This document shows positions 1 to 56,833 of a DNA stretch of 64,000 nucleotides, one piece after another. The notes below the pieces were generated by a model that had not been told where the DNA came from, ran no database searches, and saw only the letters and a list, made by a program, of their open reading frames with translations. A program made the position numbers and the translations under genes. Position 1 is the stretch's first letter; each line of letters begins with the position of its first letter. The DNA is from Dudresnaya verticillata (lineage: Eukaryota). The stretch spans positions 2,356,001-2,420,000 of the forward strand of contig OZ374564.1 in NCBI GenBank assembly GCA_977862235.1. Reading direction: 5' to 3'.

Positions 1-6
1 AAATAT

Positions 7-2874
7 TTGTCCCGTGTCCTGGATAGATGCTCAAGTTGTTTAACTACTTCTCAACCGAAAGACACCCGGAAGGTCTCACTAAGCTCCATGAGCAGGAACT
101 TTAACGACGTTGTATGCATTGATCATTTCCACCTTGATATGAACCGTGTGTTTCATCTCATGGACTCTGCTTCAAGATATTCGACCGGCGATGTTGTAAG
201 CACTATGACTATGACGGAAGCTATTAATTGTTTTGAATCTCTATGGATAACACCATTCTGGACCCCCAAATGTGTTCTATTTGACCAAGCGTTCAACAAC
301 ACCGAGTTCATACATTATCTGAAAAGTCAAGACATTGAAACTCGCCCTATACCTCCGCGTCGCCACAACAAAAATGTCATTGAATCTAAGCACAAAGTTA
401 TTCGAGATGTCTACCTACGCCTGAAAGAAGGATGTACAAATGACTCTGCTGAGCACCAAAGACTCCTAGTGCAGCAGGCACTACGAATATCAAATGATCT
501 GTACGGAAATGACGTATGTTCTGCTCATGAGTTGGCGAAAGGCTATACGAGACCTATAACATCCGGAGAATTTCCTGCACAAGTTCCTGAAGAAATTTCC
601 AAGGCCCACGATGACCTCATGGCTAAGCGAAAATTAACCCGCATCCTTCACTCCAAGTCAACTGCTGATATACCATTCAATGTTGGAGATACCGTACAAG
701 TTTATATCAAAGAACAAAATGCCAAGCGCGGCAAGTGGTCATCTCCGAAGGTGATTTTATCGTTCGATAAAACGTCTGGAACCATTTCAGTTCCTGGAAA
801 ATGTGGACGCCAAGTCCAAGCAGCTGTTGAAGATGTCCGTCCTGCCCTACCTGTGGATACACTAGGCAGTTCCATCCAAGAAGCAATTGATGCTCTCTCC
901 AAAAGTCTGGATGACAGCATTGATGAGCTCTGTTCTAAAGAAGATGTGGCATCAAATGAAGAGCTTGAGACTACCACTATAGAGGAGGTTGGATACGAAA
1001 ACGATGACGGAGATATTCTCAGCTCACACCCCGACGTTGGTGACGTCATTGATGTATATTGGCCCCTCGACGATATGTTCTACACTGGAAAAGTGGCATC
1101 AATTAACGAAGATGACAACCAGTACAACATTGATTACAATGATGGTGACAAAGAATGTCTCAAGTTATCGGATGAGACCTGGCGCTATAGCTCGGATGAA
1201 GCAATAGCAACCCACAACGTACAAATATCAGATCAAACGCTCACAAGTTCTCTGCAAGAGGTTCTTGGGTCGTATACTCTTGCCTTCGGTCACAAAGATT
1301 TTATGCGCTACCAGGCTCAAGGGCTACCAACGTTTCCATTGCTAAATGCTTACAAAAAGGAAGAAGAGGCCTTTAAGAAAACAGTCAAGATGGTCCATGC
1401 TTCTGATATCCCAAAGCATGCAAATGTCATCACAAGCCATGTGATATACAAAGTTAAGAATAATGATGATGGCTCGATGAAAATGAAAGCACGCATAGCG
1501 CCACATGGTAACAAGGACAAAGAACGCTTTCAGTTGAAAACAGACTCTTCAACCTGTCCGCCCACTGGTATTCGCATTTTGCTGTCCCTCGCTGCTCAGT
1601 TCAAGTGGTTCTTGGCCAAGATCGATTTTAAGAGCGCGTTTCTACAAACAGGAGAAGCAAAGCGAGACGTCTATGTCGTTCCGCCACGAGAAAGCGACGA
1701 CAAGCAGCACTATTGGTTGTTGCTGACTGCAGCATATGGTCTTGTGAACGCCAATGCTAAGTGGCAGGAACAAAGTGACAATTTCTTAACATCGATCGGT
1801 CTCCGCCAACTCGTTTATGTTCCACAGTTGTTTTACAAGAAGGACGCAATTGGTTCATTGCAACTCGTTGCTGTCAAAATTGTGGACGATGTACTCTTTG
1901 CTGGTGACCAGTCAACTGTTCGGTCAACTATTGGAAAGATACAGGAGCGCTATGAGCTCGGGACAATTTTTTACGGTCCGGGCTCGTTCCTTTTCTTTGG
2001 CCTCCACATTGCTCAAGATGATGAATGCTCTATAAGGATACAAGCTGATGACAAGTTGGACAACTTAAACTGCTACCCCATTGATCGACAAAGAAGAAAG
2101 CAAGGAGATGAAGTTCTAAATGCTGTCGAAACTAGTTCCTTCCGATCAGTCAACAGCTCGATTGGATGGCTTGGAATTGCCGCGTCGCCATTCTGTGCCT
2201 TCTATGCCAGTCATTTACAGCAGAAGGTACCTCAAACCACTGTACACGATATGATCTCTCAAATCAACTCTTTGAGACTGCTGCAAAAACTTGGAAGTAC
2301 CATCATGTACAAGCGACCAGCAGATAAGAAAGAGTACCCTCTATCCGTTCTGATGTTTGCAGACGCTAGTCGCAGTTCTGACTATGGCCAGCTTGGTTTC
2401 ATATCAGGTCTACTTATCGGTGACTTCGAAATGGGTTCTATATTCCATACACTTTCATGGTGTTCACACAAGTCAAAGAGACCAGTCAAATCTATTGGAG
2501 CTGCAGAAATACTAGCGTCTGGTGAAGCAATCGATGAAGGCAAAGTTCTGGTTAGTGCCTACAAGACGCTTCTCGACGTTGAAGTTGACCTGATGGTCGC
2601 TCTTGACTCCAAGGATTTATATGAGACTTTATCAACCTGCCGCAACTCCATTGATCGCTCTATTCGGGCAGATTTCAGCGTCATTCGATATGAGTTTGAG
2701 ACGCACAAAGTGAATCGCATCATCTGGATTCCTGGCAAGACCAACCTTGCAGATCCACTCACTAAGGCTAACAGCCCGCTTGTTCAACCCTTACAGCTGA
2801 CAATGTTTTCTGGAGAGCTCAGCATGAACTTCACAGATAATCTCTTTCGCAACTCAAACCAGTTCACTGGTTAG
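7..2874 (+). CDS. pol: Ty1/Copia pol polyprotein, 5'-truncated by the window: integrase core - Tudor-like domain - reverse transcriptase - RNase H
   Basis: 955-aa open ORF. IN motifs (CIDHF..LFDQAF..VIESKH) precede RT (KARIAPHG, IDFKSAFLQ, AAYGL, IVDD) and RNase H (FADAS..AAE..LDSKDL..NLADPLTK). The IN-RT-RH order is diagnostic of Copia. Confidence 0.95.
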   Translation: MSRVLDRCSSCLTTSQPKDTRKVSLSSMSRNFNDVVCIDHFHLDMNRVFHLMDSASRYSTGDVVSTMTMTEAINCFESLWITPFWTPKCVLFDQAFNNTEFIHYLKSQDIETRPIPPRRHNKNVIESKHKVIRDVYLRLKEGCTNDSAEHQRLLVQQALRISNDLYGNDVCSAHELAKGYTRPITSGEFPAQVPEEISKAHDDLMAKRKLTRILHSKSTADIPFNVGDTVQVYIKEQNAKRGKWSSPKVILSFDKTSGTISVPGKCGRQVQAAVEDVRPALPVDTLGSSIQEAIDALSKSLDDSIDELCSKEDVASNEELETTTIEEVGYENDDGDILSSHPDVGDVIDVYWPLDDMFYTGKVASINEDDNQYNIDYNDGDKECLKLSDETWRYSSDEAIATHNVQISDQTLTSSLQEVLGSYTLAFGHKDFMRYQAQGLPTFPLLNAYKKEEEAFKKTVKMVHASDIPKHANVITSHVIYKVKNNDDGSMKMKARIAPHGNKDKERFQLKTDSSTCPPTGIRILLSLAAQFKWFLAKIDFKSAFLQTGEAKRDVYVVPPRESDDKQHYWLLLTAAYGLVNANAKWQEQSDNFLTSIGLRQLVYVPQLFYKKDAIGSLQLVAVKIVDDVLFAGDQSTVRSTIGKIQERYELGTIFYGPGSFLFFGLHIAQDDECSIRIQADDKLDNLNCYPIDRQRRKQGDEVLNAVETSSFRSVNSSIGWLGIAASPFCAFYASHLQQKVPQTTVHDMISQINSLRLLQKLGSTIMYKRPADKKEYPLSVLMFADASRSSDYGQLGFISGLLIGDFEMGSIFHTLSWCSHKSKRPVKSIGAAEILASGEAIDEGKVLVSAYKTLLDVEVDLMVALDSKDLYETLSTCRNSIDRSIRADFSVIRYEFETHKVNRIIWIPGKTNLADPLTKANSPLVQPLQLTMFSGELSMNFTDNLFRNSNQFTG

Positions 2875-2883
2875 ACTCAGCTA

Positions 2884-2900
2884 AGAAAGCGGGAGGAGAA
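2884..2900 (+). other. Polypurine tract of the Copia element
   Basis: AGAAAGCGGGAGGAGAA just after the pol stop and directly before TG. Confidence 0.8.
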
Positions 2901-3365
2901 TGAAAACATTAATTGTCCTACGGTCGTATGCATACTGATGCAATCATTCTACAGTCGTATGCATACTGATGAAATGGATCTACAGTCGTATTAATACTGC
3001 AGATACTATTCTACGGTCGTATTCATGCTGACGAACCATGTTTATGTTTTATGTAGTTGTATTCACAATGGTTCTCAGTGAGCACTTTCTTCTAACTTTA
3101 GTCAACGGTCGTTTTACGTTTTAGAGGCAGTCTTCGCCTGCCTATAAGTACCGCCTAGTTCTCTCTTGTTCTACCCTCTCAACAGGACAACATTTTATCT
3201 ACACAACACAATCTGATCTACTCTGTTCTGTAAATCTACTGTTCCTCTGATACCGCTGCTACTGCCAACTTGCTACTGATCCAAATACCATTCCTTTATT
3301 CTCCCTCCCTAAGGATTTGACACTCACAAGTTCATCCTTTTCCTCCTCCTTCCTATACCTTGACA
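2901..3365 (+). mobile_element. 3' LTR of the Copia element (right end uncertain: CA at 3334 or 3365)
   Basis: Starts TGAAAAC right after the PPT; contains a tandem repeat and a TATA-like TATAAG near 3143. The 5' LTR is outside the window, so the end cannot be confirmed. Confidence 0.65.
2918..3041 (+). repeat. 4 x 31-bp tandem repeat inside the Copia LTR
   Basis: Units CTAC(G/A)GTCGTAT..AT(A/G)CTG.. start at 2918, 2949, 2980 and 3011. Confidence 0.9.
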
Positions 3366-4389: not shown

Positions 4390-4473
4390 CATGAGCCACA
4401 GCCTCAGCGTTGTGAAGACTGGTGAGTCCTAATGGACTCACCAGTGTTCACAACGCTGAGTCTGTGGCTCATG
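4390..4473. repeat. Near-perfect inverted repeat/hairpin (40-bp arms, 4-nt loop)
   Basis: CATGAGCCACAGCCTCAGCGTTGTGAAGACTGGTGAGTCC-TAAT-GGACTCACCAGTGTTCACAACGCTGAGTCTGTGGCTCATG, 2 mismatches. Confidence 0.95.
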
Positions 4474-9300: not shown

Positions 9301-11042
9301 GATTAACGTTTATCATAAGCTACAGAATAGATCCATGCAGGATAAGTTCTCTACATATAGTGGGATGACATTGTACATGGGCAACCTGGAAAGGTGGAAA
9401 ACAAAATGGACAGGGTTTGAGCCTCTGCGAACTTGAATCTTGCGGCACGCTGATGCGTGCAAGTGTAGGCTTGCCTCGATACTTTCATAGCGATTATGCC
9501 TGAGATCGCGAAAACGTAGTTGAACTATATGTACTTGCCAACGTTGTGCAAGTCTAGTCGAGTACCGATTTCTGTTTGTATGCTTCGAATGCGCGTCAGG
9601 ACGAATGATAATGATGACTCTACCTGGTGCTTCCGCTGAAGACCATCCTGGGGCTCAGGGCCTGAATGGGAAGATGCCAAGCGGCGAAACTCCCAGCCTC
9701 TCGGCTCTCAGCTTCTGACCACAAAACCCGAAACACCGCTATTGCGCTCACGTCCCTCTCCCATCGCCCTCCTTACTGGACCGTGATAAAAGCAAAGAAG
9801 GAACAATACCTCCTCTGACTGTTCCGCTATCTTAGCATTCGCTGATAGGACATCATATCGCACTGTAATGCATTAAATACGGTTAAATATGAAGGGCCCA
9901 AGTGTTAGGATATCCAACTAGTATGTGAGCCTCGCGCTGTACACTAATCGCGAAAATGCACTTATTGATGGACTCAATTACCGCGGGATGACCGTATTCA
10001 AGCCCCAGCACCCAATGCCGGCAACTTGTTAACTTAGTCCTATCAAGAAGCAGAGTGCAGAGTTAAAGGAAGAGAGCAGACCTTTATTGTGAAGGGGACC
10101 ATGTAGCGTTGTTTTATTAGAGATAGGGACAATTATAGGTGATAGCACATTCAAAACAAAAAAGTTTTCGTTCTTCTACCATTACTTACCTATCCTACAC
10201 TTCTGTAACGAAGCTCTAGTCAACCTCACTTGCACTCGTAGCCGAAGCAATTGAAGAAATCCGTCGTAATGGACTCCACCTCTCTACATACCCTGATCCC
10301 CCACCCCCACCCCCACCCCCCGCGCAGAGATCGCTAGTTATATTTCTATTACGTAATTTATTTTTTTGCCAATAGGCCGCTAACGCCGAGTCAAATGCAC
10401 TCGGAACTGTGTTCAGTGTTCAGTAAACTGCATCACCACTCTATGAGGAAACAGCACACACATTGAGCCCCGTGTAAGATTACTGTCAATATCAGTCTCG
10501 AATAGATAGTGGAACTAGAAATAGATACTAGAAGCAGTCCAATTGAACACTCCTGAATGTTGCTTTACCCTAGCATCGTAATGTCCGTACAACGCTACGC
10601 TTAATTCACTGCTTGATGGCAAATATTGCCCTCTGAGAAAGCTAAACTGCCAAAATGACCATAGGTAAGTCTCCTTTTCGTTATCGCTGTTGGTAAACCT
10701 CCTAGTTGTGCCAGCGCGAATTTCGCCGCAATAGTTTCAATCAAACCCGCGGCACCCTCCTTCAATCTAATATATGTGTGCTTCCCTTGTGAATTGCTGT
10801 CGGTTTATCAACAGTATGAAAGAATCTTCTCATCTGGCAGCTCCCCAGGTAGTGTTCCCTACTAGTTTCATTGTCATGCATGTTAAGGCAATATACATAT
10901 CAGTTGCATCTTCTTTATCCAAACCAGAATAGCAGCTTGGTAGAGTCAGATAAATAGTGAGAACTAGAATTGCTCTTCGGTAGGAGCGTACTCCTATCTT
11001 CGCAACAAGACCTTACTGTTGCTGAGAAGCGATCAACGAACT

Positions 11043-11999
11043 ATGGCAGCACCTACGATGTATCTTTCAGCAGTTCTGCTACTGCTTGTGTTCGCAACGA
11101 AGGTTTTCTCAGAGCGCAGAGAGGAAACTCTTGAGACTTCTGTGCACAAGAAAGAACTCTGCGGTGGCTTTTGCACATTCCGGATTTGCCGACCTAACCT
11201 TAACAACAACTTGAGAAGTATTGGACAGAAAATGGCCTTGGAAGTGCCTGGTGTTGCGGGCTACACGAATATCTGCAGACCGAGCAGAACCGTTGGGAGG
11301 GTCTTGAAAACAGGGGAACCACTGATCAAAAACGGCCCTGGCTCCTACTATCCCCTTTATCTCTGGGGGCCCTCAGGTTTGTCTCCCAAGTTTGCAAGAC
11401 GGTTTTTCACACCCGGCCGAGTACCACTTAAGGCTTACAGAACAACCCGTACCTCAATTGTAAGGGGAATGCCGGCTGGAAATCAATGGGACTATCTTGA
11501 CGGCCAGTGCATCGTACTGCCAGTTCATAGATGGCAAGAAATCGATCCGGTAACCAAGGCTGTCGTCGGTATCAAAAAATCGTTCTTGGCGACAAGGAAA
11601 ACAGATTGTGTTAGCTTCCAAACAGTTGCGCCAAAGATGCGGATTCAAGTCACATGGCTTAACGACGCCGATGTGGACATGATTGTGACGGAGCCCAATG
11701 GAGACGTGTTGGGCCGGGCTAGCCCAAAAACTAAGTACGGATCGTTCTTCCAAGATGCGGGTGTCGGTGAGTGCGGTTTGAGGGAATTCTCTCGAGAGAA
11801 AGCTGTCTATAGGGCTCAATATCAGCCAGGACCTTATGGTGTTCAGCTTGTTATGGGAAAGAAGTGTAACACGAATAGGTTCTTCAAATTCAGATGGATT
11901 GTAAGGGTTATGCTTGATGGGAGAGAAGTGTTCAACCAAAGCGGCTGGACGAACGCCGAAAGGTTTGAGACTATTACTACTCTCAGCGTTACCATTTAG
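11043..11999 (+). CDS. Secreted protein with Cys-containing N-terminal region and C-terminal YfaP/DUF2135-like domain
   Basis: Intact single-exon ORF with a signal-peptide-like start (MYLSAVLLLLVFATKVFS). MRIQVTWLNDADVDMIVTEPNG...PGPYGVQL resembles the YfaP-like xVxLxWxxxxDxDLxVxEPxG motif. Confidence 0.75.
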   Translation: MAAPTMYLSAVLLLLVFATKVFSERREETLETSVHKKELCGGFCTFRICRPNLNNNLRSIGQKMALEVPGVAGYTNICRPSRTVGRVLKTGEPLIKNGPGSYYPLYLWGPSGLSPKFARRFFTPGRVPLKAYRTTRTSIVRGMPAGNQWDYLDGQCIVLPVHRWQEIDPVTKAVVGIKKSFLATRKTDCVSFQTVAPKMRIQVTWLNDADVDMIVTEPNGDVLGRASPKTKYGSFFQDAGVGECGLREFSREKAVYRAQYQPGPYGVQLVMGKKCNTNRFFKFRWIVRVMLDGREVFNQSGWTNAERFETITTLSVTI

Positions 12000-14382: not shown

Positions 14383-15228
14383 TATAGTGCATACTTCAAT
14401 ATCACCCTAGGCGTCGTTACAACGTCTCGGACGGAGCTCTACGCCCTCGGCTTTACACCGCCAACGGCGTTTAAGATGTGAGTTTGGGCGCGAACCCGCT
14501 CGTGTGGTGCAAGGAGGGTGATCCCCTATTTCGCTCTGATCTGTAGGCGTGGCCCAGATCCGGATTGGATCTGGATCAGACATTGGGATTCGAATCCGAA
14601 TCACCTCACACCGCTGTGCGCACGCGTCTGTAAGCTACCCGCTACGCGCGCGCAAGTCTGTAAGCTACTCCTTACCCGCGGGTACGCGGGTGCACGACTA
14701 CGGCGACGTGTCAGCCGCGCGGTGGCGTGACACGCGTCCTGAGTTCCCTCGCACCGCGTCACGCCGCCGCCGCCCGCATCGTAGTGGTAGTATATTAGGT
14801 AACGCGTCTGTGACGTTGCAGTAAACCCCGGCAAGCCGGCCTGCCTTCACACTTCGTCCCTTCGCTCGTTAGCGTCACTGCTGCTACCCACGATCGCGCT
14901 TCCGCGTCAATGTCCGTCTTTGACGTGTATCCCCTTTTGTTTTCCCTCCGAGAAGCTCGGTGGTTCTTCACCCCCAGCGCTCAAGAGCGGACATCGCCGC
15001 TATAAGCGTGGGCTACGTGCCGGACTACCACGCACACATCCACTCCGTCGTGGACGTGTGTTTCCCTTTTTCCATTTCTACCGCCTCGGGCGTTTATAGT
15101 CCGCCCTTGGCTTGTTACCAGACTCTAACCCGTTCTACCCCCCTCGGCACTCATCCGCCAGAGGCGAGCTACCGGCCGGGCTACGAACGGCCCGGACGGT
15201 GTTTCCGTCTTAGAAGTTTTGCACTACA
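14383..15228 (+). mobile_element. Solo LTR related to the 41003-54208 chromovirus
   Basis: Ends TATAGTGC...GCACTACA with perfect 5-bp TSD CCAAG (14378-14382 / 15229-15233). Shares blocks with LTR 41003-41914 (GCGTGGCCC..ATCCGGA, CAGTAAACCCCGGCAAGCCGGC, CCGCCTCGGGCGTTTA.AGTCCGCCC). Confidence 0.9.
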
Positions 15229-24548: not shown

Positions 24549-25097
24549 AACACGCATTTGAGCGATTTCACAATATGACTTTCGAAACAGACTGGAGTCG
24601 AATAGCTATTTTCTGCTATCGTTGGAAAGGGGAGCGTCCCCTGAGTACAGTGGTTAAATCCGATTGGCTAACGGACCATGCCTTCGAAAGTTATGGCGGT
24701 TTGCGTGAATTTACCCAAAATATTTCCAGATATTCTGAATTTCAATTTCCTTGCGTCGATTTGGCCCGCGCGGCCCACTCCGCGGTCCGCACTGGGCCAA
24801 ATTGGAAATTTCCGGCCCGCAGCATGCCCCTCGCCGCGCGCGCTGCATGCGCGCCGCATCGCCCATCTGGCCCGCCCCGCGCGTGCTCGGCGCCGCCTAC
24901 AGACTACCCCGTCACCAGTTTTTCGGCTTTCTGGTGCAACGGGTGCACTGTGCTTTGCGCGTCTGTGCACAAATCCGCACGCGACCGCATACAGACTGCC
25001 TCGTCACCCGTCCCCCCCGCCCCGCCCCGCGACGCACAACTCCTTGGGCAAAACCTGCTGTCGCGGTTGCCCACCCTCGTGCACACCGTGGATCCCG
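24549..25097 (+). repeat. Left terminal inverted repeat (~549 bp)
   Basis: Begins AACACGCATTTGAGCGATTTCA and ends CACACCGTGGATCCCG; reverse complement of 62084-62629 with scattered substitutions and small indels. Confidence 0.95.
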
Positions 25098-33055: not shown

Positions 33056-33163
33056 GGTCGTGATTACGCTTCTGAAGAAGAGCATACTGACGTCGGGACT
33101 GCAGGCGATGGGGAGGATGCTGATTCCGACACGCCGGAATGACACCCCTCCGACGGGGAGGAG

Positions 33164-35360
33164 ATGGCACTAGACGGGCGTGGAGACGGCCAGGCTAGTG
33201 CTAGGACGAGCCGGAAGACGAATTATAGACATGATGCTCGTCCGAAAGGAACCCCATCGGGGCATTTGATGGCTGCGAAGAGGAGAAAGGTAGTGGAGGT
33301 GATGGAGATGCAGGATATCTTAAACATTTTCTGCTGCCAAACAAAACAATGCTTCGGAACCATCGAGTCAGTCTACATCAGGGTTGAGTCACGCAAAATG
33401 ATGGACAAGAATCGCACGGAAAGGAAGCGATACCTCACGGGACTACTGGAACCCAACTCCAACATGTACTTCTTCAGCGGGCGGCCGGTTTGTTACTCAT
33501 TTCTGGACAAGGCTTTCGGTTTCTCTAGATACCTGCAGTCGGCAGTGAAAGGAACGAACAAGAGCCGCGAAAGGAAAGGGAGGGGACTGATAGTTGGTGG
33601 TACTTCTACGGAACAGATGGAGGTGATAACGTCGTTCTTGGAGCGCCTCGCAGAAGTGTCTGGTGATTCGCAACCAGACAAGGCTGAAATCCACCTCCCC
33701 TTCTATGAGAAGCTCGCAGTCTGTAACACGTTTGTGACTGAGCACCGTACTCTGTACCCTAACAGAGCAACACCATCACAGAGCTACTTTTATAGTATCT
33801 GGCTCCGCAGCTGTCCGCAGATTAAGATCAGGAGAACTCACCGGTTTGCAAAATGCTCCGAGTGCGAGGAGATCAAAGATCTTCTTGCAAAAGCGGCAAC
33901 GGATCTAGCGGGAACCGAAGCGCTTCGCGAGCGGCGGGCAAGGCACGTGATAATGGTCATGCAGGAGCGAACAGAATATCGCAAGAAGTGTGAGATGTCT
34001 TCGATGTATCCGAAGAACTACTGTTCACTCATCATCGACGGTGCTGACCAGTCCGCATTTGGACTGCCACACTTCCACATCAAGGTGAAGGACACACGCG
34101 GACATGGAATGAAGGCCAAAGTAGTCGGCGTTTTAGAGCATGGCCAAGTCCCACATCTAAACCTTTTCACGATGACTGCTGAGTTCGAAACAGGCGGAAA
34201 TCATATCATCGAAGCTCTGCATCGCGTATTGATGGCACGCAGAGACAGGATGCCACTGAAGGGTACGTTGTTCCTCCAGGTCGACAACTGTACTAGGGAG
34301 AATAAGAACAGGTTTATGTTCGGCTACTTGGCGTATCTCGTTGCTATGGGTGTATTTCCGGAAGTGCATGCGTCGTTTCTCCCCATCGGTCACACGCATG
34401 CCGATATCGATCAAGTTTTCAGCTGCACTTCGAAGAGATTACGCGTTAGAGACGCCATTATCATGCACGAACTACGGCAATCATGTACTCCTCAACCACG
34501 TGTCACGGAGATGTTGCACATTATTAATTTCTCCGGGGTATGCAAAGAGGCCGGATGCCTCGGGCGTACCGAGCCCATTTCAGAATATCGGTACTTTAGG
34601 TTCAGTGCGGAAGGAGCTAAGAACACAGACGCCGGTACGTTCAAGACTCTCTGCGAAGTGAAGAGGGGCTGCAAAGACTCTTGGAAACCTTTACATACGC
34701 GAGATGGCCAAGGGCATTCTTGTTATTTCCCCCTACCTGCACCGGATTCCACCGACTCCCTGTCGAGCACCGCCTGATGAGCACGAAGTAACCAAGCGTC
34801 TACGATCGGCCGAGAGCAGAATCAACAATCACAGTAAGGTACAGAAGCTGTTGGCACTTCGTGATACAGTTTACGAGGACCGTGAAGACCCATTCCACTG
34901 GGCATTGGCGGATGTGTTTGAGTTGGAAGGGGCTTACAAACCGGATGGGAGCGGCCCTAGCGCACCCTCGGAATCGGGGTCAGACGCTGAGAATGTAGTG
35001 GAACAGGACCTCGTGGAACAGGACCTCACTTACACAAAGAACAGCTTTGTAGCCGTACTAGGCGACGACTGTACCGAAGGATGCCCGTTCTGGCTTGGGC
35101 AAGTGATGAATTGGGAGACGGACGGGGGGGCAAGGTTACCAATTTGCAAGTAGAGTGGTACGACAGAAGGAGTACTCGAGGGAATACTTTCACCGGGCGT
35201 TATCGGAAGGCGCGAATAACCGATGCAAATGGACATGTCAAACCGTGGAGCGATACGGTCCCGGGGAAGTCGGTTTTAGTAGAGTTCGCGCGTTTAACCA
35301 ACTCTGGAATACCCGTCACGGTGCAGCGAAATATCAGGGAAGCCCTAAAGATGCGAAAGA
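33164..35360 (+). pseudogene. Sola-like DDD transposase, frameshifted near 34720 and 35125
   Basis: Cys clusters (CC..QC, CSEC); catalytic-type motifs IIDGADQ, LQVDNCTRENKN, SFLPIGHTHADIDQVFS; C-terminal FVAV...PFWLGQV...LQVEWY domain in the shifted frames. Confidence 0.8.
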
Positions 35361-37305: not shown

Positions 37306-38520
37306 CTATGTCATTGTGTACTTGGGTCCGCCACCGCCCTGCGGCACGGTCCAAGTGATATTCTGAGAAGGGTCCTTAATGTAGCAAGCCTTACAGTGCA
37401 AGCAATTCTGCGAATTGATCTGCAGGGTGCGATTCCTGCCATCCTTCTCGACATATTCGTAGACTCTGGCAGGGCAGTAGCGACCTTCGGGTCCTCCAAA
37501 TTGTGGAAAGTTAAGATTCTCTGGGACGCTTTCGTCGGTCAATACGAGATGACACGGCTCGTCATGATCATGATCTGTTCCACTGAGCGATACCGCCGTT
37601 AGGATATCAAAGGTAACTTTCCCGTCTGGCTTCGGATAGTCAATTAGCTTTGATTTTGAAGCCCGTTTTGTCGAAAGATGGTCTGGCTCCGGATGAGATA
37701 GCGTCCATGGTGAAGATTCTCGTGTGAGATAGGATTCTAAGGCAGCATTTGCCAGACCTGGTATCAAGCCATACTTGAAGCCTGGTCGAATGTTCCTGAC
37801 CTTTTTAAGCTCATCCCAAACCCATGAACCTTTCAGCTGCTCCTCGTACCCCTCGGCAGAATCCTTTCCACTAGTCAGATTCTCGAATACCGCATCTGCC
37901 GCCAGCATTGCGCTTTTTTGTGCAGTATGTGTACCCTTTATCTTTGGGACGTTCAGGAAGCCAGCAGAACATCCAATGAGGGCCCCACCCGGAAACTCCA
38001 GTTCTGGAATGGATTGAAGCCCACCTTCATTAAGAGTACGGGCGCCGTACTGTAGCATCTCTCCACCTTCAAGCAATGTTCGAATGGACGGGTGGCTCTT
38101 GTACCGCTGAAACCCCTGAAATGGGGATAGGCGTGGGTTGTGATAGTCAAGCGCCACCACAAAGCCAATAGCCACTTGCTCGTCTGCCATATGATACAAA
38201 AACGAACCGCCATAAGTCGCAAAGTCCATTGGATATCCAATAGTGTGAACGATCTTACCCGGCTCGTGTTTAGCCGGATCCACTCTCCAGACTTCCTTCA
38301 CGCCTAGCGCATACGTCTGATGCTGGCGACCTTCCGTGAGTCCATAGCGCTCCGTCGCTTGCTTCGTGAGCGATCGGCGCGCGCCTTCCGCCAACAGCGC
38401 GACCTTACGAACCACGTCAACCCCGGCTCGAAAGTATCTTTGTGAGTGCCATCCTTGGCAACTCCAAAGTCATTTGCGGCGACACCACGCACTTGCCCAT
38501 CATCGCCGATAAAGACGCTT
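37306..38520 (-). pseudogene. ETFQO: ETF-ubiquinone oxidoreductase, lacking the N-terminal FAD-binding part, with a frameshift near 38420
   Basis: DFGVAKDG, AEGAR.SL, GVKEVW, YGARTLNEGG, KIKGTHTA.KS, 4Fe-4S motifs CPARVYE and NCLHCKACYIKDP, and terminal GGGPKY. Confidence 0.93.
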
Positions 38521-41002: not shown

Positions 41003-41914
41003 TGTAGTGCCAGGGGGTCCCCCTTTTTCGCTTTCAAGCGGGTTGATATGCAGCGTCTACCGACGGACGACCGCCAACGGCGCGCTCAACCCGCCCGCGG
41101 CGCAAACACGTCACCGACGCATGCCGCTGGCCACTTGGGCCAGAACGGCTCGCTTGGCGTGCAGACCGCACGCCTGAACCCGGGACCCTGTACGGCGCCA
41201 CGCGTACGCGCATGGTGCAGTGGCGGGAACGTTCGCTGTAAGCGTGGCCCGAATCCGGATCCAATCGGGATCCCACATCGGGATCAGACATCGAGATTAA
41301 GAGGTGTAAGGCACGCGCCTGTAAGCCTGGCGCATCCGCATGGCTGGCCCGAATCCGGACTGGATCGGGATTGGTGCGGATCGAGATCGCACGCGCCATG
41401 GGGCGCATGCGGCTGTAAGGAAGTAATCCACGTGTAGGTGTAAGGACTCGGGCGGGGAAGCTACGCGTGATCTGTCAGGAGCGCGGCTGCATGACGGACG
41501 GATCTGTCAGACGCGCCTCGGGACAACACGTGTCCCGAGTTCCCGCGTGGCGCGTACACACGCGTCGCCGCCACTAGGTAATTCTATACTTAGTTGATCC
41601 GTCTCAGACGTCACAGTAAACCCCGGCAAGCCGGCTTTGGTCCAGACTTCCCCGTTCAGCACGCGCGTACCCTACCGCTGCCTACGGCTAAGCGTCTACC
41701 TCCCGTGCTTCCACGTCTCTACCCATCTTTGACGTGTTCCCTTTTTGTTCTCTTTTGTTCTTCCTTTCCGCCTCGGGCGTTTACAGTCCGCCCAAGGCGA
41801 GTTAACTGCTCTACCACAAGTCGCCCAAGGCGAGGCTACTCACCGCCACGGGCATCGCTACCCACCGAGCCCCGAACTGCTCAGCGGTGTTCCGTCTACG
41901 ACGTTTGCACTACA
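41003..41914 (+). repeat. 5' LTR (912 bp)
   Basis: TGTAGTGC...GCACTACA with 8-bp terminal inverted repeats; matches 53296-54208. Confidence 0.97.
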
Positions 41915-41916
41915 AC

Positions 41917-41934
41917 TGGTCCCCCGACCTAGAA
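41917..41934 (+). other. Primer-binding site (possibly tRNA-Trp type)
   Basis: TGGTCCCCCGACCTAGAA, 2 nt after the LTR. Confidence 0.75.
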
Positions 41935-42041
41935 GTGTGCTACGTTTCAACGAGTTACTCCGTCGTGCGACGTCCGACCTTCCGTCTCTAGACGTCCGTC
42001 GCTAATCGTCCACGACGTTCAAGCAACTCTACGACTGCATT

Positions 42042-44615
42042 ATGGCCTCACGACCGCCGCCGTCGCGAGGCCCCAGTTCAAGAAGACCGTCATCAACGCC
42101 GGGGAGTGTCCCCGCGTCGGAGCGGTCGCTGCAGCGGATGACAACGAGGTCTGGGCGCCTCGTGAGCCCCGAGATCGCATCGGCCTTCCCGACCGGTCCA
42201 GGCCACGATCACTCCCATATATCGCTCAACAGGGGAGAAGTACCTCCCCCGCCGATACCCGTCGTCATCCGCACCACCGTTCCAAACGAATCGGCCCTCC
42301 GAACCTACCACTCGCACGTGGATTCCGCTGACACGGTACAAGCCGAACAGCGACCCGTCGAGGACGGAGCCCAAGCCGACATCGTTGAGGAACAACCGGA
42401 AGTTCCGGTCCACCAACCAACCTTACCCGTCGACGACGACCAAGAACGCCCTGCGGGGCGCGACGTCGTAGAAGAATCACCAATCCCAAGGGGCTGCTGC
42501 CCCTCACCCCACGGCAGTGCCGGATGTTCACCGGCCAGGCCGTTAGCGCAACCGCGCAGCACGGGAGGTCCGCCGCAGGCGTCGACCCCCGCGCACACAC
42601 CGCCAATGGCGTCCCCAGAATCCGCCCGCGTTGGTAATCTCACGATACCTCGCGAGCGGATTCGGGAAGTATGCATCGCCGAAGACGGTAACTTACTCGC
42701 TCGATTCGCGGAGATGCTCGACGACAATGTCGGAGGTATCTTCAGCCGTCTACAGACGTTGGAAGAAGATCGGGACGGTGCCCTTCAAGGACTCCGTTCC
42801 GACCTCGACCGTCTGATGACGAATCCCAACCAAGGGGTAGATGCTCAGCAGCCAACGGCATTGACGGTCCAGTCCCAGTCGGAACTGAATTCACGCGAAC
42901 GTTTTCAACGATTGGCAACCCGCTTAGAGCGACTGGAAACCGCCAAATGGCGCCAAGGGCCGCCGTCGGATGACGGTAGTTCCGAAGAAGACCGTCACGA
43001 ACGCAAAGATCGTAAGAGACGGGGCAAGAATCGCCGCAAGTCGCGTCATGGACGGAAGAAGAACCGTCACCGACGAGGGGATTCATCCTCATCCTCTTCG
43101 GACACGTCTAGTGACGATAGCTCAACCGACTCTTCGTCAGACGATGACGACCACATGGCTCACGGCAGTGCCATGCGACCCCGTGGAAAGCGATACAAGG
43201 GACTGAAGGAGCTAAGCCCCTCCAATCCTCTCTTCGACCAGTTGCTATCGTACCGCTCATACCATCTCCAAGACGTGGGACAGAAGCGCTCTGGACGCGA
43301 AACCGGGAAGGTCAAAGACCATATCAAGCGACTCGAGTTAACAATGAAGGACGCCGCCTTCAACGGCAGCGACCCCGTCATGGTTCTCGAAGTTTTAACG
43401 CGGTTCGAGAATGAAGCGGACACGCTAGAGATGAGCGAAGCACAAGCGTTTGTCGCGCTGCCGTACTTCTTAAGGGGCACGGCAGCCACGCAATTCCGCT
43501 CCGTCAAATCGACGTCCTCTCGCCACCGCGGCGGCGTATCATCGTACCCGGAGGCGGCGCACTACCTACTCCGCACGTACGCCACGCCTTCGGCGATTCG
43601 AGACGCTGTCCTCGCCCTGCGGTCGACTAGTCAGAAGCAGGGCGAAGACGAAACGACTTACGGCATGAGACTCGCCGGCGCATGTACTCGTTCCGGTAAC
43701 GTTTATCCCGAATGGGAAAAGATGACACAGTACATCGATGGGTTAGACCCGACGATCAGGTCCTTAGTGGCCCGTTTCCGCGAAGAAACGCCGAGGACGG
43801 AGTTATCTTTTGAACGTTTAGTCCACTTCGCGCAGGAAGAAGGTGACGCGCAACGCGCAAGACACGGCAGGGCCGGCTCGACGTCAGTAAGACGGGATAT
43901 AATGGCCCCGGCCCAAGCCGCTCGCGCATTGCGCCCCGCCATTGGCGACAACCGAACGGTTCTACGTCAACAGACGAGGGGCACGAAGCCTGCTGCACGC
44001 GCTATGATAGCGGAGTCCTCCGTTGAGTTCCGTGATGTCACCAGTCATGCGGACGATATGGAAACACACGCCGATGGCGATCTCTATTTGGCCGATGAAC
44101 AAGCGTCAGTGCCAACGTCAGCGTTACCAACGGACAGCTACGTCGAAGACGAGGACACAGGGGCAATGGATCCTACACTCGCCTTTGGGCGTTCTGTTGT
44201 GCCCGCGCCACGCGTCCCGTACTCGGATTATGCCCCCCACGTCCATCGGGCGAGGCCAGGTTGGCAAGACAGGGGTCCGCTCCGTCAAGACGCTCGCAGA
44301 CAGTTGATCTGTCATCAGTGTTATGCCCGTGGCCACATCACACCGGACTTCTTCCTCCGCATGAGCGAGTATATGAAAGCGATCGCCAACTACGAAGGCT
44401 TAACAGACGTCGAGAAGGCGGGGTCCCCGCCGATGCGTACACTCGGTACAAAGAACGCGCTGCGCGCGAAGCAGCACGCCGTGCAGCACGACCACCGTCG
44501 CCATGGGGCGAACCTATGCCGCATTCAGAAGAACGTCATCCGACGGTGGTCAATCGCTACACAGCGCCGCTACAACCGCCGCAGGCGAAAAACTAATGAG
44601 GGTACCAACTCCTGA
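42042..44615 (+). CDS. gag: Gag
   Basis: 857-aa ORF after the PBS; capsid-like F.G.DP....L..F...A...W/F region, QKQGEDETTY, YIDGL, and a degenerate zinc knuckle CHQCYARGHITPDF. Confidence 0.88.
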   Translation: MASRPPPSRGPSSRRPSSTPGSVPASERSLQRMTTRSGRLVSPEIASAFPTGPGHDHSHISLNRGEVPPPPIPVVIRTTVPNESALRTYHSHVDSADTVQAEQRPVEDGAQADIVEEQPEVPVHQPTLPVDDDQERPAGRDVVEESPIPRGCCPSPHGSAGCSPARPLAQPRSTGGPPQASTPAHTPPMASPESARVGNLTIPRERIREVCIAEDGNLLARFAEMLDDNVGGIFSRLQTLEEDRDGALQGLRSDLDRLMTNPNQGVDAQQPTALTVQSQSELNSRERFQRLATRLERLETAKWRQGPPSDDGSSEEDRHERKDRKRRGKNRRKSRHGRKKNRHRRGDSSSSSSDTSSDDSSTDSSSDDDDHMAHGSAMRPRGKRYKGLKELSPSNPLFDQLLSYRSYHLQDVGQKRSGRETGKVKDHIKRLELTMKDAAFNGSDPVMVLEVLTRFENEADTLEMSEAQAFVALPYFLRGTAATQFRSVKSTSSRHRGGVSSYPEAAHYLLRTYATPSAIRDAVLALRSTSQKQGEDETTYGMRLAGACTRSGNVYPEWEKMTQYIDGLDPTIRSLVARFREETPRTELSFERLVHFAQEEGDAQRARHGRAGSTSVRRDIMAPAQAARALRPAIGDNRTVLRQQTRGTKPAARAMIAESSVEFRDVTSHADDMETHADGDLYLADEQASVPTSALPTDSYVEDEDTGAMDPTLAFGRSVVPAPRVPYSDYAPHVHRARPGWQDRGPLRQDARRQLICHQCYARGHITPDFFLRMSEYMKAIANYEGLTDVEKAGSPPMRTLGTKNALRAKQHAVQHDHRRHGANLCRIQKNVIRRWSIATQRRYNRRRRKTNEGTNS

Positions 44616-47600
44616 CACTGGGGTGTCGCACCAAGCAGAGAGGCTTCCGCCTCGGGTGCTGACACGGAAGGAGGGCCCGAACTTAGTTAACAAATACGCC
44701 GATAGGCGGGTAGACTCGTCACAGACGTCCTTGAAGCGCCCCTGGCGTAGGTACCAGCCCCCACAAGCCCGGGAACAGTTGTTCGTAATGGCCAAAAGGA
44801 ACTGCAAAGTATACGATGATCTAGGTGTAACTGTAGGTACCTTGGCACGTAAACTCACTGTCCTCGACACGGGGGCTGGTCCGAATTTCATCCGTATTGA
44901 CGATATTCCGCTAGAAGCGCGATCACGGATCGTATCCAAGAGTCTCCCCGTCATATCAGACGCTAACCACAAGGCGATTCAGACCCGGGGCACTATCGAC
45001 TTAGTCGTACGTCTCGGACGAAGGGTTGTCAAGTTGGAGTTGATCGTCTGTGAACGGCTCGCTGCGCCGGTTATACTCTGTTGCGACTTTTGCGACCGCT
45101 TTGTCGAAGCGATTTATCCGCGGAGTCGCGGGATTGAGCTGGACGACGGGACCCGTGTCCCTATAACGCGCCGCCCGTTGCGCCGGCCCCCGTCGTACCC
45201 CCCGTTAACAACGGAACAAGAGTACGGCACGGCCGAATGGCGAACGTCGCCCAAGATACGCGTTGCGGAACGAACGATCATCCCGCCGCAGGCGCAAAAG
45301 TGGATCTCGGTAACGACCGAACGAGCAGGGGTCATTACCATCCAACCGCTTGGAACGTTATATGATCTGCAAGCTTTGGCCGTTACTAACGGAGTCGCTG
45401 AAGTAGAGCCGCTGAGAGTGTTCCGGATTCTCGTCGCAAACTTCTCCCCGCGCCCGCAAGCGCTCATCAAAGGACAAGTCGTCGCTACCGCGTTGCCACA
45501 TCCCACAGCAGTGTTCCCCAGTCACATAAGTCTGGCTGATGTCCTAGGTATCACCTAGGAACAGGCAGCGGGGGAGGAGGCGAATCAAGATTTCCGTTTT
45601 CAAACGAACGATGGGGTAACGGCGCAGCCGGATACATTCGCTAAGTCGAAGCAACTGTAGCTAAACCTCCGTCCGTGGACGAGTTGGACCTGAGTCATCT
45701 CTCAACCGAACATCAAGGACGGCTGAAGGAGATGCTGCGCAGGTACTCGTTGATGTGGGACGGTTCATTAGGATAAATCGCAACCACGGAGCACTATATT
45801 GACTTGCTCCCCGGCTCCAGGCCGATTTCATCCCCGCCTTACCTCGCTGGCCCAAAGCAAAGGCAACTCGCTCAAGCGGAGGTGGATCGCATGTTGCGTC
45901 AGGGGGTTATCGAACCCGCACAATCGCCATGGGCGTCGCCGGTCGTCTTTGCTCCCAAGAAGGACGGTACACTCCGCTTCTGCGTTGACCGTCGCTTGAA
46001 CGCGGTAACAGTACGAGATACGTACCCTCTCCCGCGAATCGACGAATGTATTTACAGCCTAGGGGAAGCGAACGTCTTCACCACCCTAGACTGAAATAGT
46101 GGTTACTGGCAGGTGCCCATCAATCCGCGAGATCGCGACAAGACGGCGTTCACGTGCCATGCCGGGTTGTTCCGCTACAAGCGTATGCCCTTCGGACTTA
46201 CTAACACACCGGCCACGTTTCAACGGACCCTCGATATCCTGCTTGCTGGTTACAAGTGGCGCTCATGCCTCGTCTACCTTGACGATGTGATCATCTTCTC
46301 GAACGATATTGACAGTCACTTCCGTCATGTTGACGAGATCCTTTCGACCTTGCATGGGGCGGGGGTGACATTGAAGTTAACCAAGTGCGACTTCTTCACC
46401 CCGACCGTCAACTATCTAGGCCATTTGATACGTCCGGGACGATTGGAAGTAGACCGTACGGTCACAGCCGCGTTACGCGAAGCCAAGCATCCGCCGGACC
46501 AGAAGGAATTGCGGAGCTTTCTCGGATTGTGCAACGTCTATAGACGGTTTGTATCGCGATACGCGCACGTCGCCGCTCTCCTCAACAAATTGTTAAGGAA
46601 AGAGCAAGACTTCCGGTTACAACCGTTCACCGAGGAGCAAGCTCGGGCATTCAGCACGCTTGTCGAAGCGGTGACTCACCCGCCCATGCTGGCGTTGCCA
46701 CAGCAAGGACTACCGTACTCCGTCGATTTTGACGCGAGCGAATACCAAGTTGGCTGCGCACTCTTTCAAACGCAGCCTGACGGCGAACGGAAGCCGCTTG
46801 ATTTCTGGTCACGTTCGTTAACCGCTCCGGAGCGCAACTACTCGGTATCCGAAAAGGAATGCCTAGCAGTAGTCTGGTCGATCACGACGTTGAGACCGTA
46901 CCTTCAGATGGAGTCCTTCGTAGTCCATACGGACCATTCGTCGTTGAGGTGGCTCATGTAAATCAGCGACCCCTCGGGACGGTTAATGAGATGGCGCCTT
47001 CGCCTCTCTGAGTTCGACTTCGTCGTGAAGTATAAAAAGGGATACCTGAATACTCAGGCAGATGCCCTCTCAAGTCTATAGACGAACGGCGAAACTGTTG
47101 AACCAATCGACGATGATATCCCGTGTTACCACAGAAGTTGCGTCAAAGACGAGGATCACTCGTCAGAAGACTGCTACGCTCACGCAGAAAGCGATACGTC
47201 AAACGCCAAGGGCGAAGTCGATTTCTCCGAACGAGACTTCGAGGAGTTTGACCAGATGTTGGTTACCAACGCGCCACCGGCGGATGAAGTGCTCCTCCGT
47301 CATTTGACGCATGAAGAGTTGGTGCATGCTCAGGGCAGTGACCAGTACTGTTCCGAGATCCGGAAACGTCTAGACGACGGAGACAACCTACCGTCTGCAA
47401 CGGATGAACAGGGACTATTGGTTCGGACCGTCGAGGCCCGACCCCAAGTCGTTGTACCATCCGCGTTACGCGTTCGATTTCTCCATCTCCGACATCATGC
47501 TAAATTAACAGGACATCCCGGAGGGCGGAAGCTGTACCATACGCTTCGACGCGAGTATTATTGGCCATCTATGTCGGTGGATTGTTACGGGACCGTCCGC

Positions 47601-49328
47601 AATTGCATTACTTGCGCGAAGAACCGGGTACTGATGCGAAAGAACGTGAAGGAGATGAAACTGTTCCCAGCAACCGAGCCTCTCGAGTTTGTGTCCATCG
47701 ATATAGTCGGGGAGCGCATACGCACTAAGCGGGGGAATACGTTCCTACTCGTCATCGTGGACCGCTTCTCGAAGCTGGTCCGGACGGTTCCCTTACGTAA
47801 GATTACGGCATTAGAAATCTCTAAGGCGTTTGTTCGACACTGGGTGTTTGTGTATGGCCCACCCAAGAAGCTGCTCTCCGACAATGGGCCGCAATTTGTA
47901 GCCAAGTTGTTCCAGAACGTCTGCCGCATCCTAGGGGTGGAGAATCTCTTCACCACTACATACTATCCGCAGTGTAACGGCCAAGTGGAACGATTCAATG
48001 GAACCATCCTCGCCTCCTTGCGTCACTACGTAGCAGACCACCCCAGGGACTGAGATTTGTTCACCGATGCTCTGACGTTCACGTAAAATACGCAACTGCA
48101 CTCGTCTACCCACCTCGTTCCATTCGAGCTGGTGCTATCTAAGCCCCCGCGGCCATTGTCGCTGCAAGCGGAGCCGTCGCTCGAAAGCGTGCCCACTGCC
48201 GGACAGTACTACACCAAATGGCGAACCTGGCTGTCCGCATTGATGGGAACCGCTAAAGCGCCGCTCGCGAAAACGCAGGCGCGTTACAAACGGAACTTCG
48301 ATACTCGTCTGCGGAAATCGAAGGAGAACATCGCTGTGAGCGACTTTGCATTCGTGCGGAAGGAATACTTCGCCCGGGGCGGGAGCACCGATCGCTCAGA
48401 GCGCAAGCACAAGCTCGCGCCTGTGGCGAATGGACCGTATCGAGTCACTCACGTCGACGACGGGACAGTCACCGTCGACAAGGGACGCGGAGAACGCGAA
48501 CGTTTATCCCGGGACCACGTGGTATGGGCGCCAACCCCACCAGGGCACACCGCCCCCGCAACCGTGCAACCACCGGGACCACCTCACGTACCGGGGCCCA
48601 CTACACCCACGTCAACTGACGAAGGAGCAGGAACCCCAGACACGCCACAGGCGGACCCGGCAGGAGGCACAGGGACACCGCGAAGCACGGACGACTCGCA
48701 GGAGCGAATGAATGCAACGCCGCGAAGTCGCGGGTTAGAAGAGCTCTCGCCCTTCGCCGCTAATCCCGACGACGGTGTATCGCAATCCGTCTCCGACGAG
48801 GAGGAGGTTCCAGGCATCCGTACGCGAATGGGACACGCAACCTCGGCTTCGCCGGCTACCAAGGTAGGCCCCGCTTCAAGCGCATCGACTGACGATGAGG
48901 AAGACCGCGCTAACGCGAAGGACGCCGCTAGAAGCGAGGAACCAGTACGAAAAAGCGACGAACCACAACCCGCTACGCAAGCGCTCGGGGCACCGACCCA
49001 GCGCCTTAGGCGATCGACTCGTCGAGTACGGTTTGCAGAACCGCTGCAGACGCCCATCACGCAACGAAGTGAACCGCCCCAGGCGTTAGAACGGCAGGAG
49101 CCCACGTCGACCGCTACAAGCGCGAAGGAGTACGTTATCGGACGGGTTGAGTCGCACGCACACGCGGAAGACGGCGAGATTCTCTACCGCGTCAAGTGGT
49201 TTGGATACCCCGCTTCAGCGAATACCTGGGAACCAGTGTCCAGTCTACCGCGATCGCACGTTGTGCGGTATCACCGTCAGAATCACACGCGCATGCCGCC
49301 AAACATCGACGACGCGCAATGCGGGTAA
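44503..49328 (+). pseudogene. pol: Pol: protease (LDTGAG), RT (WASPV, MPFGL, YLDD), RNase H (DAS, EKECLA), integrase (H..GH..C..C, SDNGPQF, NGQVER), chromodomain (YRVKWFGY..SANTWEP); several stops and frameshifts
   Basis: ORFs 44503-45558, 45804-46094, 46113-46961, 47256-48053 and 48132-49328 in Gypsy domain order. Confidence 0.95.
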
Positions 49329-50530
49329 CCCTAGTCAGGATGGAATCTGGAAGCGAAAACACACGCCACATACGGGTTGACGCGGACGTGCACTCGTTAC
49401 GGACGACGGGGGCTGTACTCAACCGGATCAAGGACGATTGGGTTGGCGACACGCGAATAGGCAACCCTCTTCGGAGGGGGTCCGTAAGGACAGAACGGCT
49501 GACAGTAGTGAGAAGGCGTGGAGGGCGCACGCACCACACGAAATCGGGCAACAAACAAAATGGAAAATTTTAATGTGAAAACAATAACGCGAAGGCACCA
49601 GCCAGACGGCGCCCAACAAACGAGAACCTGACAAGTGTGTGCCCCAGCACTACGAGCGCCCACGAGGCAACCAAGCACGGACGCGACAGACGGTCTCCGA
49701 CGTTCTCGCCCAGGCGCGCCACCCACGGCCAAGTCCGAAACTCGTCATCCTTACGGGCGGCGCACGCAACCGCCTCGAGGGTGACGCCCGCGAACGTCAA
49801 CGACGTGTCTCAAGTCGAAAAAGGGGTCGCCCTCAAACATGAGAGAAGAAACAGTCGTCGAAGACGGAGTTGGGCTACGTTTCGTGCACGATGCGCTAAT
49901 CGCGAAAATGGCTCCGCCGCTGGGCGCGGCAGCCGCACCCAGGAGTCGCAGGAAACGCCTCCAACGCGCGGCGCATCGCCAACCTAACCGTCCCCGACGC
50001 TAACCCAACATGCCCTGCGTCAAGGACGAAAAGCCAACGGACAAACGGCTCCCCAACTACATATTCACTTAACAAGCGGAATCGCGATTTGAACAAAACG
50101 ACTAAGTCGGCATAAGAACATGGGCCCTCCCAAAAGGGCTTACGCTACTGTAGCGGCATCAAGAAAAGGGAAAAAACGCCATCAAGGCGGCACCGCCCCA
50201 ATCTTTTACGCAAACGCTACTACAGCGGACAGACAACAACAACGTCTATACGAACGGGACCCGTCGGCTATCTAATATTCGTTATCGCAGCTCTCTACAT
50301 CAAGCGGACACATAAGCAACTACGTTTGACAACGGCCGAGTTTATTCGGGCTTCACAAGCGAGGGTAACCCCCGTGCCCGTATGACCTTCACCTACGACC
50401 TACCTCGTGAGACGCGACACTAACCATCTATGACGTATGAATCCCTCGCTCGCTGCCCCGCTGTGGGGCAAGCGGAGCGACACCACACGCACTCTCGCGC
50501 CCACGAACCGTTCTTAACGATCCAACAGAG

Positions 50531-52834: not shown

Positions 52835-53295
52835 TACGTCTGAGACGTTGAGTAATCACACGGCACTGGCGAAACACACATGATACGTCAACGACGGTCT
52901 TGGACTCCGAAGTCGAGTCAACTACGCCAAAGGCGGAAGCAAACAAAACACACGTCAACGACGCTGGACCGAACAACGCCGAAGGCGGACCTCAAAGAAA
53001 CGCCCTAGGCGATAAGCGCACGCACGCGTGCACAGATACGACGTCAACGACGGGGTTTCACGCACGCCACTGGCGAAGTTAGTCAACGACACGTCTTCGA
53101 CGGGAATTGTTCCTACGCCAAGGGCGGGTGGGCAACTGAACGTGCGTTTTTGACGGGGCTCAACCAACGCCAAGGGTGGGCAAATGCAGACGCGAAGGCG
53201 CGGGTGACCGACACGATCGGCACTGGAAGAGACGCGGACGAGGAATGCAGGCAGGCTGAAACAGGTTGACGTGATCGCGTTTTCGGAGGGGGTCG

Positions 53296-56605: not shown

Positions 56606-56833
56606 ATTCCTCCCACTTCATCTGATATGTTCGTATCCTGCATTTGGAAGACGGGTCCTTCTACTCCACATCATAACCGGTATCCAGTCTCTCCGACTTG
56701 CGTGTTGAAGAAACAGAACGACTACCCGGTCCAATACACTCGTTCTGGATGTCATTGTTACCAGCTAATGCGCCTGTGTCGTTGTCGTCTGTAGGATCCA
56801 GGCCCGATTGCGTATTCTGCCTCTGTGTGTCAG

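Follow-up and report, generated by a model that had tools for sequence, protein, structure and literature searches.

Can a Ty1/copia retrotransposon carry a histone reader of its own, and would such a reader take part in the choice of insertion sites? The question is raised by the element that opens the window, a stretch of 64,000 nucleotides from Dudresnaya verticillata (GenBank assembly GCA_977862235.1, contig OZ374564.1, positions 2,356,001 to 2,420,000, forward strand), in which a preliminary description had placed a Tudor/Agenet-like segment between the integrase and the reverse transcriptase (RT) of a Copia element. We propose that this segment is a Tudor domain of the RDM15/PDS5C type that stays on the integrase, reads histone H3 monomethylated at lysine 4 (H3K4me1) and biases insertion, and we would put the probability of this whole chain, much of which is read from sequence, at about 0.6.

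The window begins inside a single 5'-open frame of 957 amino acids (aa), and the peptide singled out in the preliminary description (52 residues, aa 345-396, nucleotides 1033-1188) does lie within it between integrase and RT, with neither a stop nor a frame shift. Searched in isolation against Pfam, the segment matched four Tudor families, one of them above its cut-off (LBR_tudor, 22.7 bits, cut-off 22); PTM_DIR17_Tudor fell just below (E 4.1e-6, 26.9 bits, cut-off 27.2) and Tudor_5 gave E 2.5e-4. Agenet was not among these matches, and the "Agenet-like" half of the earlier label is not borne out for this segment. The best sequence match in the PDB was 7DE9, the Tudor domain of Arabidopsis RDM15 (PDS5C) in complex with H3K4me1 (PMC8184781), with E 1.1e-7 from the single sequence and 2.4e-17 from a nine-row profile, where the next match stood at 7e-4. 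A profile built from five plant PDS5 Tudors alone gave the segment 49.6 bits, a score that none of 1000 shuffles approached (best 10.6), and profile comparison with a PDS5C-like protein returned a probability of 98.6%. The AlphaFold model of the segment has five strands and a predicted local distance difference test score (pLDDT) of 91.8. Foldseek ranked 7DE9 first, as the sole match below E 0.001 (E 1.7e-5, TM 0.83/0.87, root-mean-square deviation (rmsd) 0.6 A over 52 residues), and VIA-align did the same across 48,161 chains (Z 10.4, rmsd 1.1, 56 aligned), with PHF19 second (Z 8.5, rmsd 1.9, 56 aligned, 14% identity). Atlas matches for the Tudor all scored below 0.9 and were treated as leads only. 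The modelled fold, its first-ranked match and the PDS5 profile score confirm the segment as a five-stranded Tudor barrel of the RDM15/PDS5C type, in agreement with the PDS5-type Tudor proposed at the outset.

The match to RDM15 extends to the residues that hold its ligand. In RDM15 the aromatic cage is formed by W616, Y623 and Y641, selectivity for the monomethyl state comes from D643 and D645, and arginine 2 of histone H3 (H3R2) is bound by E647 and Q654 (PMC8184781). These positions align without gaps with W354, Y361, Y379, D381, D383, E385 and E392, six of the seven being identical, and the cage, earlier described as intact, corresponds to that of RDM15 in all three residues. Across 47 aligned Tudors the sites hold, in the same order, W in 46; Y in 42 and F in 5; Y in 47; D in 47; D in 34 and E in 8; E in 45; and E in 44 with Q in 2. 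All seven are kept in 40 of the 47 if conservative changes are allowed, the first six are exact in 28, and these residues are among the least variable columns of our alignment of the relatives (A1). On the model of RDM15, W354, Y361 and Y379 would cage a single methyl group, D381 and D383 would hold the two ammonium protons, and E385 and E392 would accept H3R2. The two domains share fold, cage, both aspartates and the H3R2 glutamate at 36% identity; RDM15 is a host factor of cohesin and RNA-directed DNA methylation with measured binding, whereas here the domain belongs to a polyprotein, its binding is predicted and Q654 is replaced by glutamate. It is probable, given these residues, that the Tudor binds a methyl-lysine histone, and we lean slightly towards H3K4me1 as the particular mark. 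The methyl-histone reader of the preliminary description can in this way be sharpened to a predicted H3K4me1 reader; the integration targeting it also suggested stays at the level of inference.

For such a reader to act in integration it would have to remain on the integrase. In a model of aa 1-420 built from a 45-row alignment, the catalytic core is followed by a helix, a beta domain (aa 231-281), a long helix (aa 287-313), a disordered linker (aa 314-340), the Tudor (aa 349-396) and a further disordered stretch. The core residues D41, D95 and E128 are kept in 35/35, 40/41 and 42/42 non-gap rows of A1, and the core gives weak rve matches in Pfam in relatives. The C-terminal beta domain is separate from the Tudor and is found in all aligned relatives, with an identity of 49-53% in the Tudor-bearing and Tudor-less classes alike; one relative (P0034) gives it a weak SH3_11 match (E 0.03), and a PDB sequence search with it returned no matches. 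Downstream of the Tudor lies a candidate protease site, a loosely conserved stretch of the type (A/S)-N-x-(V/I)-x-L that is present in relatives with and without a Tudor. By eye, comparable stretches occur at other domain borders in P0002 and P0012, full-length relatives in which Gag-like, zinc-knuckle-like, protease-like and HHCC parts precede the integrase in the same frame. Since this stretch is 3' of the Tudor, the domain would stay on the integrase, and we judge it probable that the polyprotein is cut there, leaving the Tudor as the last integrase domain on a flexible arm. The helix and the flexible acidic linker could then let it reach the nucleosome adjoining the target DNA, where contact with H3K4me1 would steer insertion into chromatin bearing that mark. 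The fusion of integrase, Tudor and RT is not an assembly chimera, since a single contig of the public sequencing run X2 covers window positions 1-1862, and with them all three domains, with 30 differing letters. Among the differences listed for the frame (at least 25), 16 are synonymous and 9 nonsynonymous.

A role in site choice is likely by analogy with other Copia elements. The target choice of Tal1 and EVD is decided by the region between integrase core and RT (PMC11735389), and chromatin with H3K4me1 is a favoured target of the plant elements EVADE and ONSEN (PMC13621724). In Tal1, EVADE and ONSEN the integrase C-terminal region sets the target, as it would here; the passages on them name no folded histone reader (PMC11735389, PMC13621724). 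Copia site choice has in this way been linked to the C-terminal region and to H3K4me1 in Arabidopsis, and the present lineage offers a candidate reader.

Several points weigh against this proposal. Within the pocket, the seventh ligand residue differs, Q654 of RDM15 being E392 here. Which mark is read depends on the residues around the cage, and among other single Tudors there are readers of H3K36me3, H4K20me2 and H3K4me3 (PMC8184781), those of the PHF1/PHF19 type reading H3K36me3 with a four-residue aromatic cage (PMC8184781). On the side of the host, our literature search found no red-algal map of H3K4me1. In Chlamydomonas this mark has been linked to silencing (PMC8566409), although reports also place it on the bodies of genes, there as well as in green plants. 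H3K4me1 binding and targeting are, moreover, predictions here, likely ones, drawn from fold, ligand residues and analogy.

The best of the alternatives keeps the tether and changes its ligand: the Tudor would hold the integrase to another low-methyl lysine mark, or to an R-x-K(me1) motif in a host protein that is not a histone. The next structural neighbours, PHF19/PHF1, PHF20 and LBR, do read other marks, RDM15 recognises an RXKme1 motif only, which other proteins could present (PMC8184781), and a glutamate stands here at the Q654 position. Set against this are the distance of 7DE9 from every other match, in sequence and likewise in structure, and the retention of the monomethyl-selective aspartates and the H3R2 glutamate, and we regard another ligand as unlikely. 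Somewhat less probable again is a role outside site choice, in which the Tudor would contact chromatin or a host protein, perhaps while staying on the RT. It might keep the integration complex in the nucleus, help to assemble particles, shield the element's own copies from silencing or recruit repair factors. Viral anchors to the nucleosome acidic patch serve genome retention besides site choice (PMC9040877), PDS5C/RDM15 acts in RNA-directed DNA methylation and the MSH6 Tudor in repair, and the cleavage site between integrase and RT is itself a prediction. The position of the Tudor, however, is that of the chromodomains in chromoviruses and in the diatom CoDi-A elements and of the targeting region in Tal1 and EVD, and the candidate cleavage stretch follows it.

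The relatives bear on H3K4me1-directed insertion from both sides. Our protein search, which scored the best 8000 candidates with lengths of 526-1675 aa, gave 67 homologues. The Tudor, whose retention in sister elements the preliminary description had raised, is present in 44 of the 53 that span the integrase-RT linker (two decayed or partial) and absent from 9, counts for which the presence profile was built from the same Tudors and is circular for the positives (scores of at least 31 against at most 3.4); 5 of the 14 non-spanning homologues also show it. Metagenome loci fetched by non-Tudor patterns numbered 21, and all 16 that span the region carry a Tudor or its remnant, these 16 coming from three assemblies and several being the same sequences as proteins found later. 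The nine Tudor-less relatives retain long open frames, so that the Tudor is not needed for transposition. In the relative P0033 the frame is long and the Tudor has decayed, its cage tryptophan being absent. Mean identity to the window (35 rows, P0033 counted as Tudor-less) is 0.48 for the Tudor, 0.13 and 0.22 for the linkers, 0.54 for the integrase core and 0.60 for the RT, in a lineage whose members are 40-66% identical in protein. That the Tudor is a captured host fragment without function, as its loss in 9 of 53 relatives might suggest, is very improbable, being contradicted by a conservation pattern in which the domain keeps 48% identity between linkers at 13-22% across a long-branched lineage and the ligand residues are among the least variable columns.

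Three homologues carry an organism name, and all are from Gracilariales red algae (Gracilariopsis chorda, Agarophyton chilense and a Gracilaria changii transcript). On these three names a red alga would be the likely host of the window as well. A quick unrooted tree of 44 of the 68 proteins, with Tudor and linker columns excluded, needs two changes in Tudor presence, and Tudor-bearing elements flank its deepest split on both sides; as the tree has no root, these two changes do not decide between gain and loss. The simplest reading would be that the lineage had the Tudor from early on and that one or two sub-lineages lost it.

The Tudor-less relatives may have filled the same slot differently. 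Directly before the candidate cleavage stretch, the motif M-x-[TL]-R occurs in 7 of 9 Tudor-less against 0 of 45 Tudor-bearing proteins, a count over 54 proteins with a span rule slightly different from that of the 53 above; we use no p-value for it, since we chose the pattern with the alignment already in view and the proteins that bear it are related, which also counts against our case. In its bearers (P0027, P0034, P0036, P0037, P0044, P0048 and P0057) the surroundings resemble (T/S)-H-x-M-x-(T/L)-R-(S/R/E), and a similar H-x-M-x-T-R motif presumably exists in plant Copia elements. M-x-[TL]-R resembles the acidic-patch anchors of two viral proteins, LANA (M6-R7-L8-R9) and IE1 (T480-H481-x-M483-V484-T485-R486-S487) (PMC9040877). 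If the motif is real, the linker slot could be a chromatin tether in both classes. We offer only tentatively, and with less confidence than the other parts of the proposal, the wider picture of a widespread red-algal Copia lineage that targets through its own H3K4me1 Tudor, with an exchangeable slot into which one branch swapped a LANA/IE1-like anchor.

How new is the arrangement? The preliminary description held reader fusions to be foreign to Copia, which overstates the case: in 2009 the CoDi-A Copia elements of diatoms were reported to have a putative chromodomain at the C-terminus of their integrase, a feature described there for no other Copia (PMC2774666). CoDi-A is likewise a Copia with a putative reader at the end of the integrase, a chromodomain there and a Tudor here; the Pfam search gave no Chromo match, the CoDi-A feature, in the frame of our element, which has the Tudor instead. 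Gypsy chromoviruses also carry a reader on the integrase C-terminus for chromatin-directed integration, and differ in superfamily, domain order and reader. Another parallel is Gypsy-10_Ec32 of Ectocarpus, which its authors reported in 2025 as the first transposable element with a Tudor to their knowledge (PMC12477816), and which, with a Tribonema homologue, is likewise a long terminal repeat (LTR) retrotransposon whose integrase end bears a Tudor. As described, it is a single family with one full-length copy in a stramenopile, with Gypsy order and the Tudor at the extreme C-terminus, whereas the present lineage has Copia order, a Tudor inside the polyprotein and dozens of divergent families. 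Our literature search, mostly of open papers, found no Copia with a Tudor, and a Repbase or GyDB curator's note may exist; the term Tudor had no match in PMC6317226, PMC3248453, PMC2774666 and the Bostrychia preprint. The domain is 55 residues long, its structural template is near-exact and the ligand predicted for it is specific. If our proposal is correct, no Copia before this one would have shown a Tudor reader, and its sister families would form a natural pair for relating tether to insertion sites. It would add a further independent capture of a reader by integrases, after chromodomains in Gypsy and CoDi-A and a Tudor in a brown-algal Gypsy.

As to where the domain came from, its best matches outside the elements are small stand-alone proteins (P0170, P0176 and P0158; 78-84 bits) composed of three or four Tudors and a basic tail, without transposon domains, followed by plant PDS5 Tudors at 57-70 bits. 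A search of 50% representatives at E 0.001 returned 6333 proteins, of which the best 150 listed were all multi-Tudor. A word-filtered search with the Tudor region of the single protein yielded 8 candidates and no match. A protein kinase also bears this Tudor type, which was seen together with AP2/NUMOD repeats as well (P0117 and P0229 among the proteins noted). Two Tudor trees of 54 columns joined element, plant PDS5 and stand-alone Tudors in one poorly resolved group, set apart from stramenopile multi-Tudor repeats with support of 100/99, and did not resolve the donor. Convergent acquisition by the element, as first suggested, is plausible. The reverse, that plant PDS5/MSH6 Tudors derive from such an element, is very unlikely in our view, and the trees neither support nor exclude it. 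Red algae are reported to lack the MSH6 Tudor (bioRxiv 2024.10.15.618488), and the element's Tudor points to a role for H3K4me1 in these algae.

Features of the Ty1/copia element at the start of the window (positions in the window; residue numbers in the open frame)
Feature	Position	Strand	Basis or remarks
Ty1/copia polyprotein, 3' two-thirds of single open reading frame	1..2874	+	integrase, Tudor, RT, RNase H; 5' end precedes window
Integrase catalytic core	109..540	+	D41/D95/E128; model pLDDT mostly >90
Integrase C-terminal beta domain, predicted SH3-like	691..843	+	strands at aa 231-281 in model
Long helix (aa 287-313), then disordered acidic linker (aa 314-340)	859..1020	+	model; linker identity 13%
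Tudor domain, RDM15/PDS5C type	1030..1191	+	cage W354, Y361, Y379; acidic D381, D383; predicted H3R2 pocket E385, E392
Candidate protease site, integrase/RT border	1207..1230	+	predicted from sequence; 3' of Tudor
Reverse transcriptase, copia type	1402..2043	+	RVT_2 E 8.4e-20, above cut-off; catalytic aspartates conserved (A1)
RNase H	2353..2775	+	conserved D, E, D and C-terminal AD-x-LTK motifs across A1
Polypurine tract	2883..2898	+	sequence; same-place purine tracts in L004, L010, L012, L014, L018
3' LTR, 402 bp	2899..3300	+	loose ends of other copies at 2899 (X4, X6) and 3300 (X1, X2, X3)

Domain order, RT type and LTR structure place the element in Ty1/copia. Its integrase is encoded upstream of RT and RNase H, as in the Ty1/copia order, the latter assigned by motif and position because it gave no Pfam match. 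Directly after the LTR end, X2 and the loci L003, L013 and L015 share a site, a candidate primer-binding site that we take to be of the half-tRNA-Met type. Half-tRNA priming is confined to Ty1/copia (PMC6317226), and RVT_2 goes with the same superfamily (PMC3248453). A Gmr1-like Gypsy, in which the integrase also precedes the RT, was considered because relatives show weak Integrase_H2C2 and SH3_11 matches, and was rejected, the RT matching RVT_2 and giving no RVT_1 match in Pfam. The GalEa clade, known by its primer-binding site TGGTAGCAGAGC and a TRPDI motif (PMC3587641), was rejected as well, the site after the LTR being different and TRPDI absent from the protein.

The LTR ends were placed from the loose ends of other element copies in public sequencing runs, the window containing the 3' LTR of this copy and its 5' LTR lying outside. 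The termini are AATG...TATT and not the usual TG...CA, which is typical for Ty1/copia without defining it, and they suggest integration without 3' trimming. The terminal TT precedes three different flanks and the terminal AA follows two. In relatives (L003, L013, L015, L004, L010, L012 and L014 compared) the LTRs have a sub-terminal TGAA and variable first bases. Inside the LTR is a tandem repeat of a 31-bp unit, 3.8 copies at 2918-3035. Run X1 contains the element with few differences but leaves 19 kb of flanking sequence almost uncovered; X15 and X16, which carry the same organism label, contain next to no element sequence. This pattern could reflect a recent transfer between species; missing cover proves nothing, and we make no use of that reading.

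Elsewhere in the window, a Gypsy element at about 41013-54208 has two near-identical LTRs 12.3 kb apart, RVT_1, an integrase and a chromodomain (Chromo E 4.7e-8, in 48087-49325), with extra minus-strand frames at 51060-52855 and related LTR pieces at 14795-15117. An N6/N4 DNA methyltransferase is encoded at 55595-56617 (-; E 3.9e-11); such genes have been reported as cargo of red-algal Plavaka transposons (bioRxiv 2025.02.11.637652). Other frames encode a DUF7869 protein (33143-34777, +), an ETF-ubiquinone oxidoreductase (37306-38469, -) and a 343-aa product with a signal-peptide-like start and no Pfam match (10968-11999, +). A 40-bp inverted repeat with a 4-nt loop lies at 4390-4473, and a 550-bp sequence is repeated in inverted orientation at 24549-25097 and 62084-62629.

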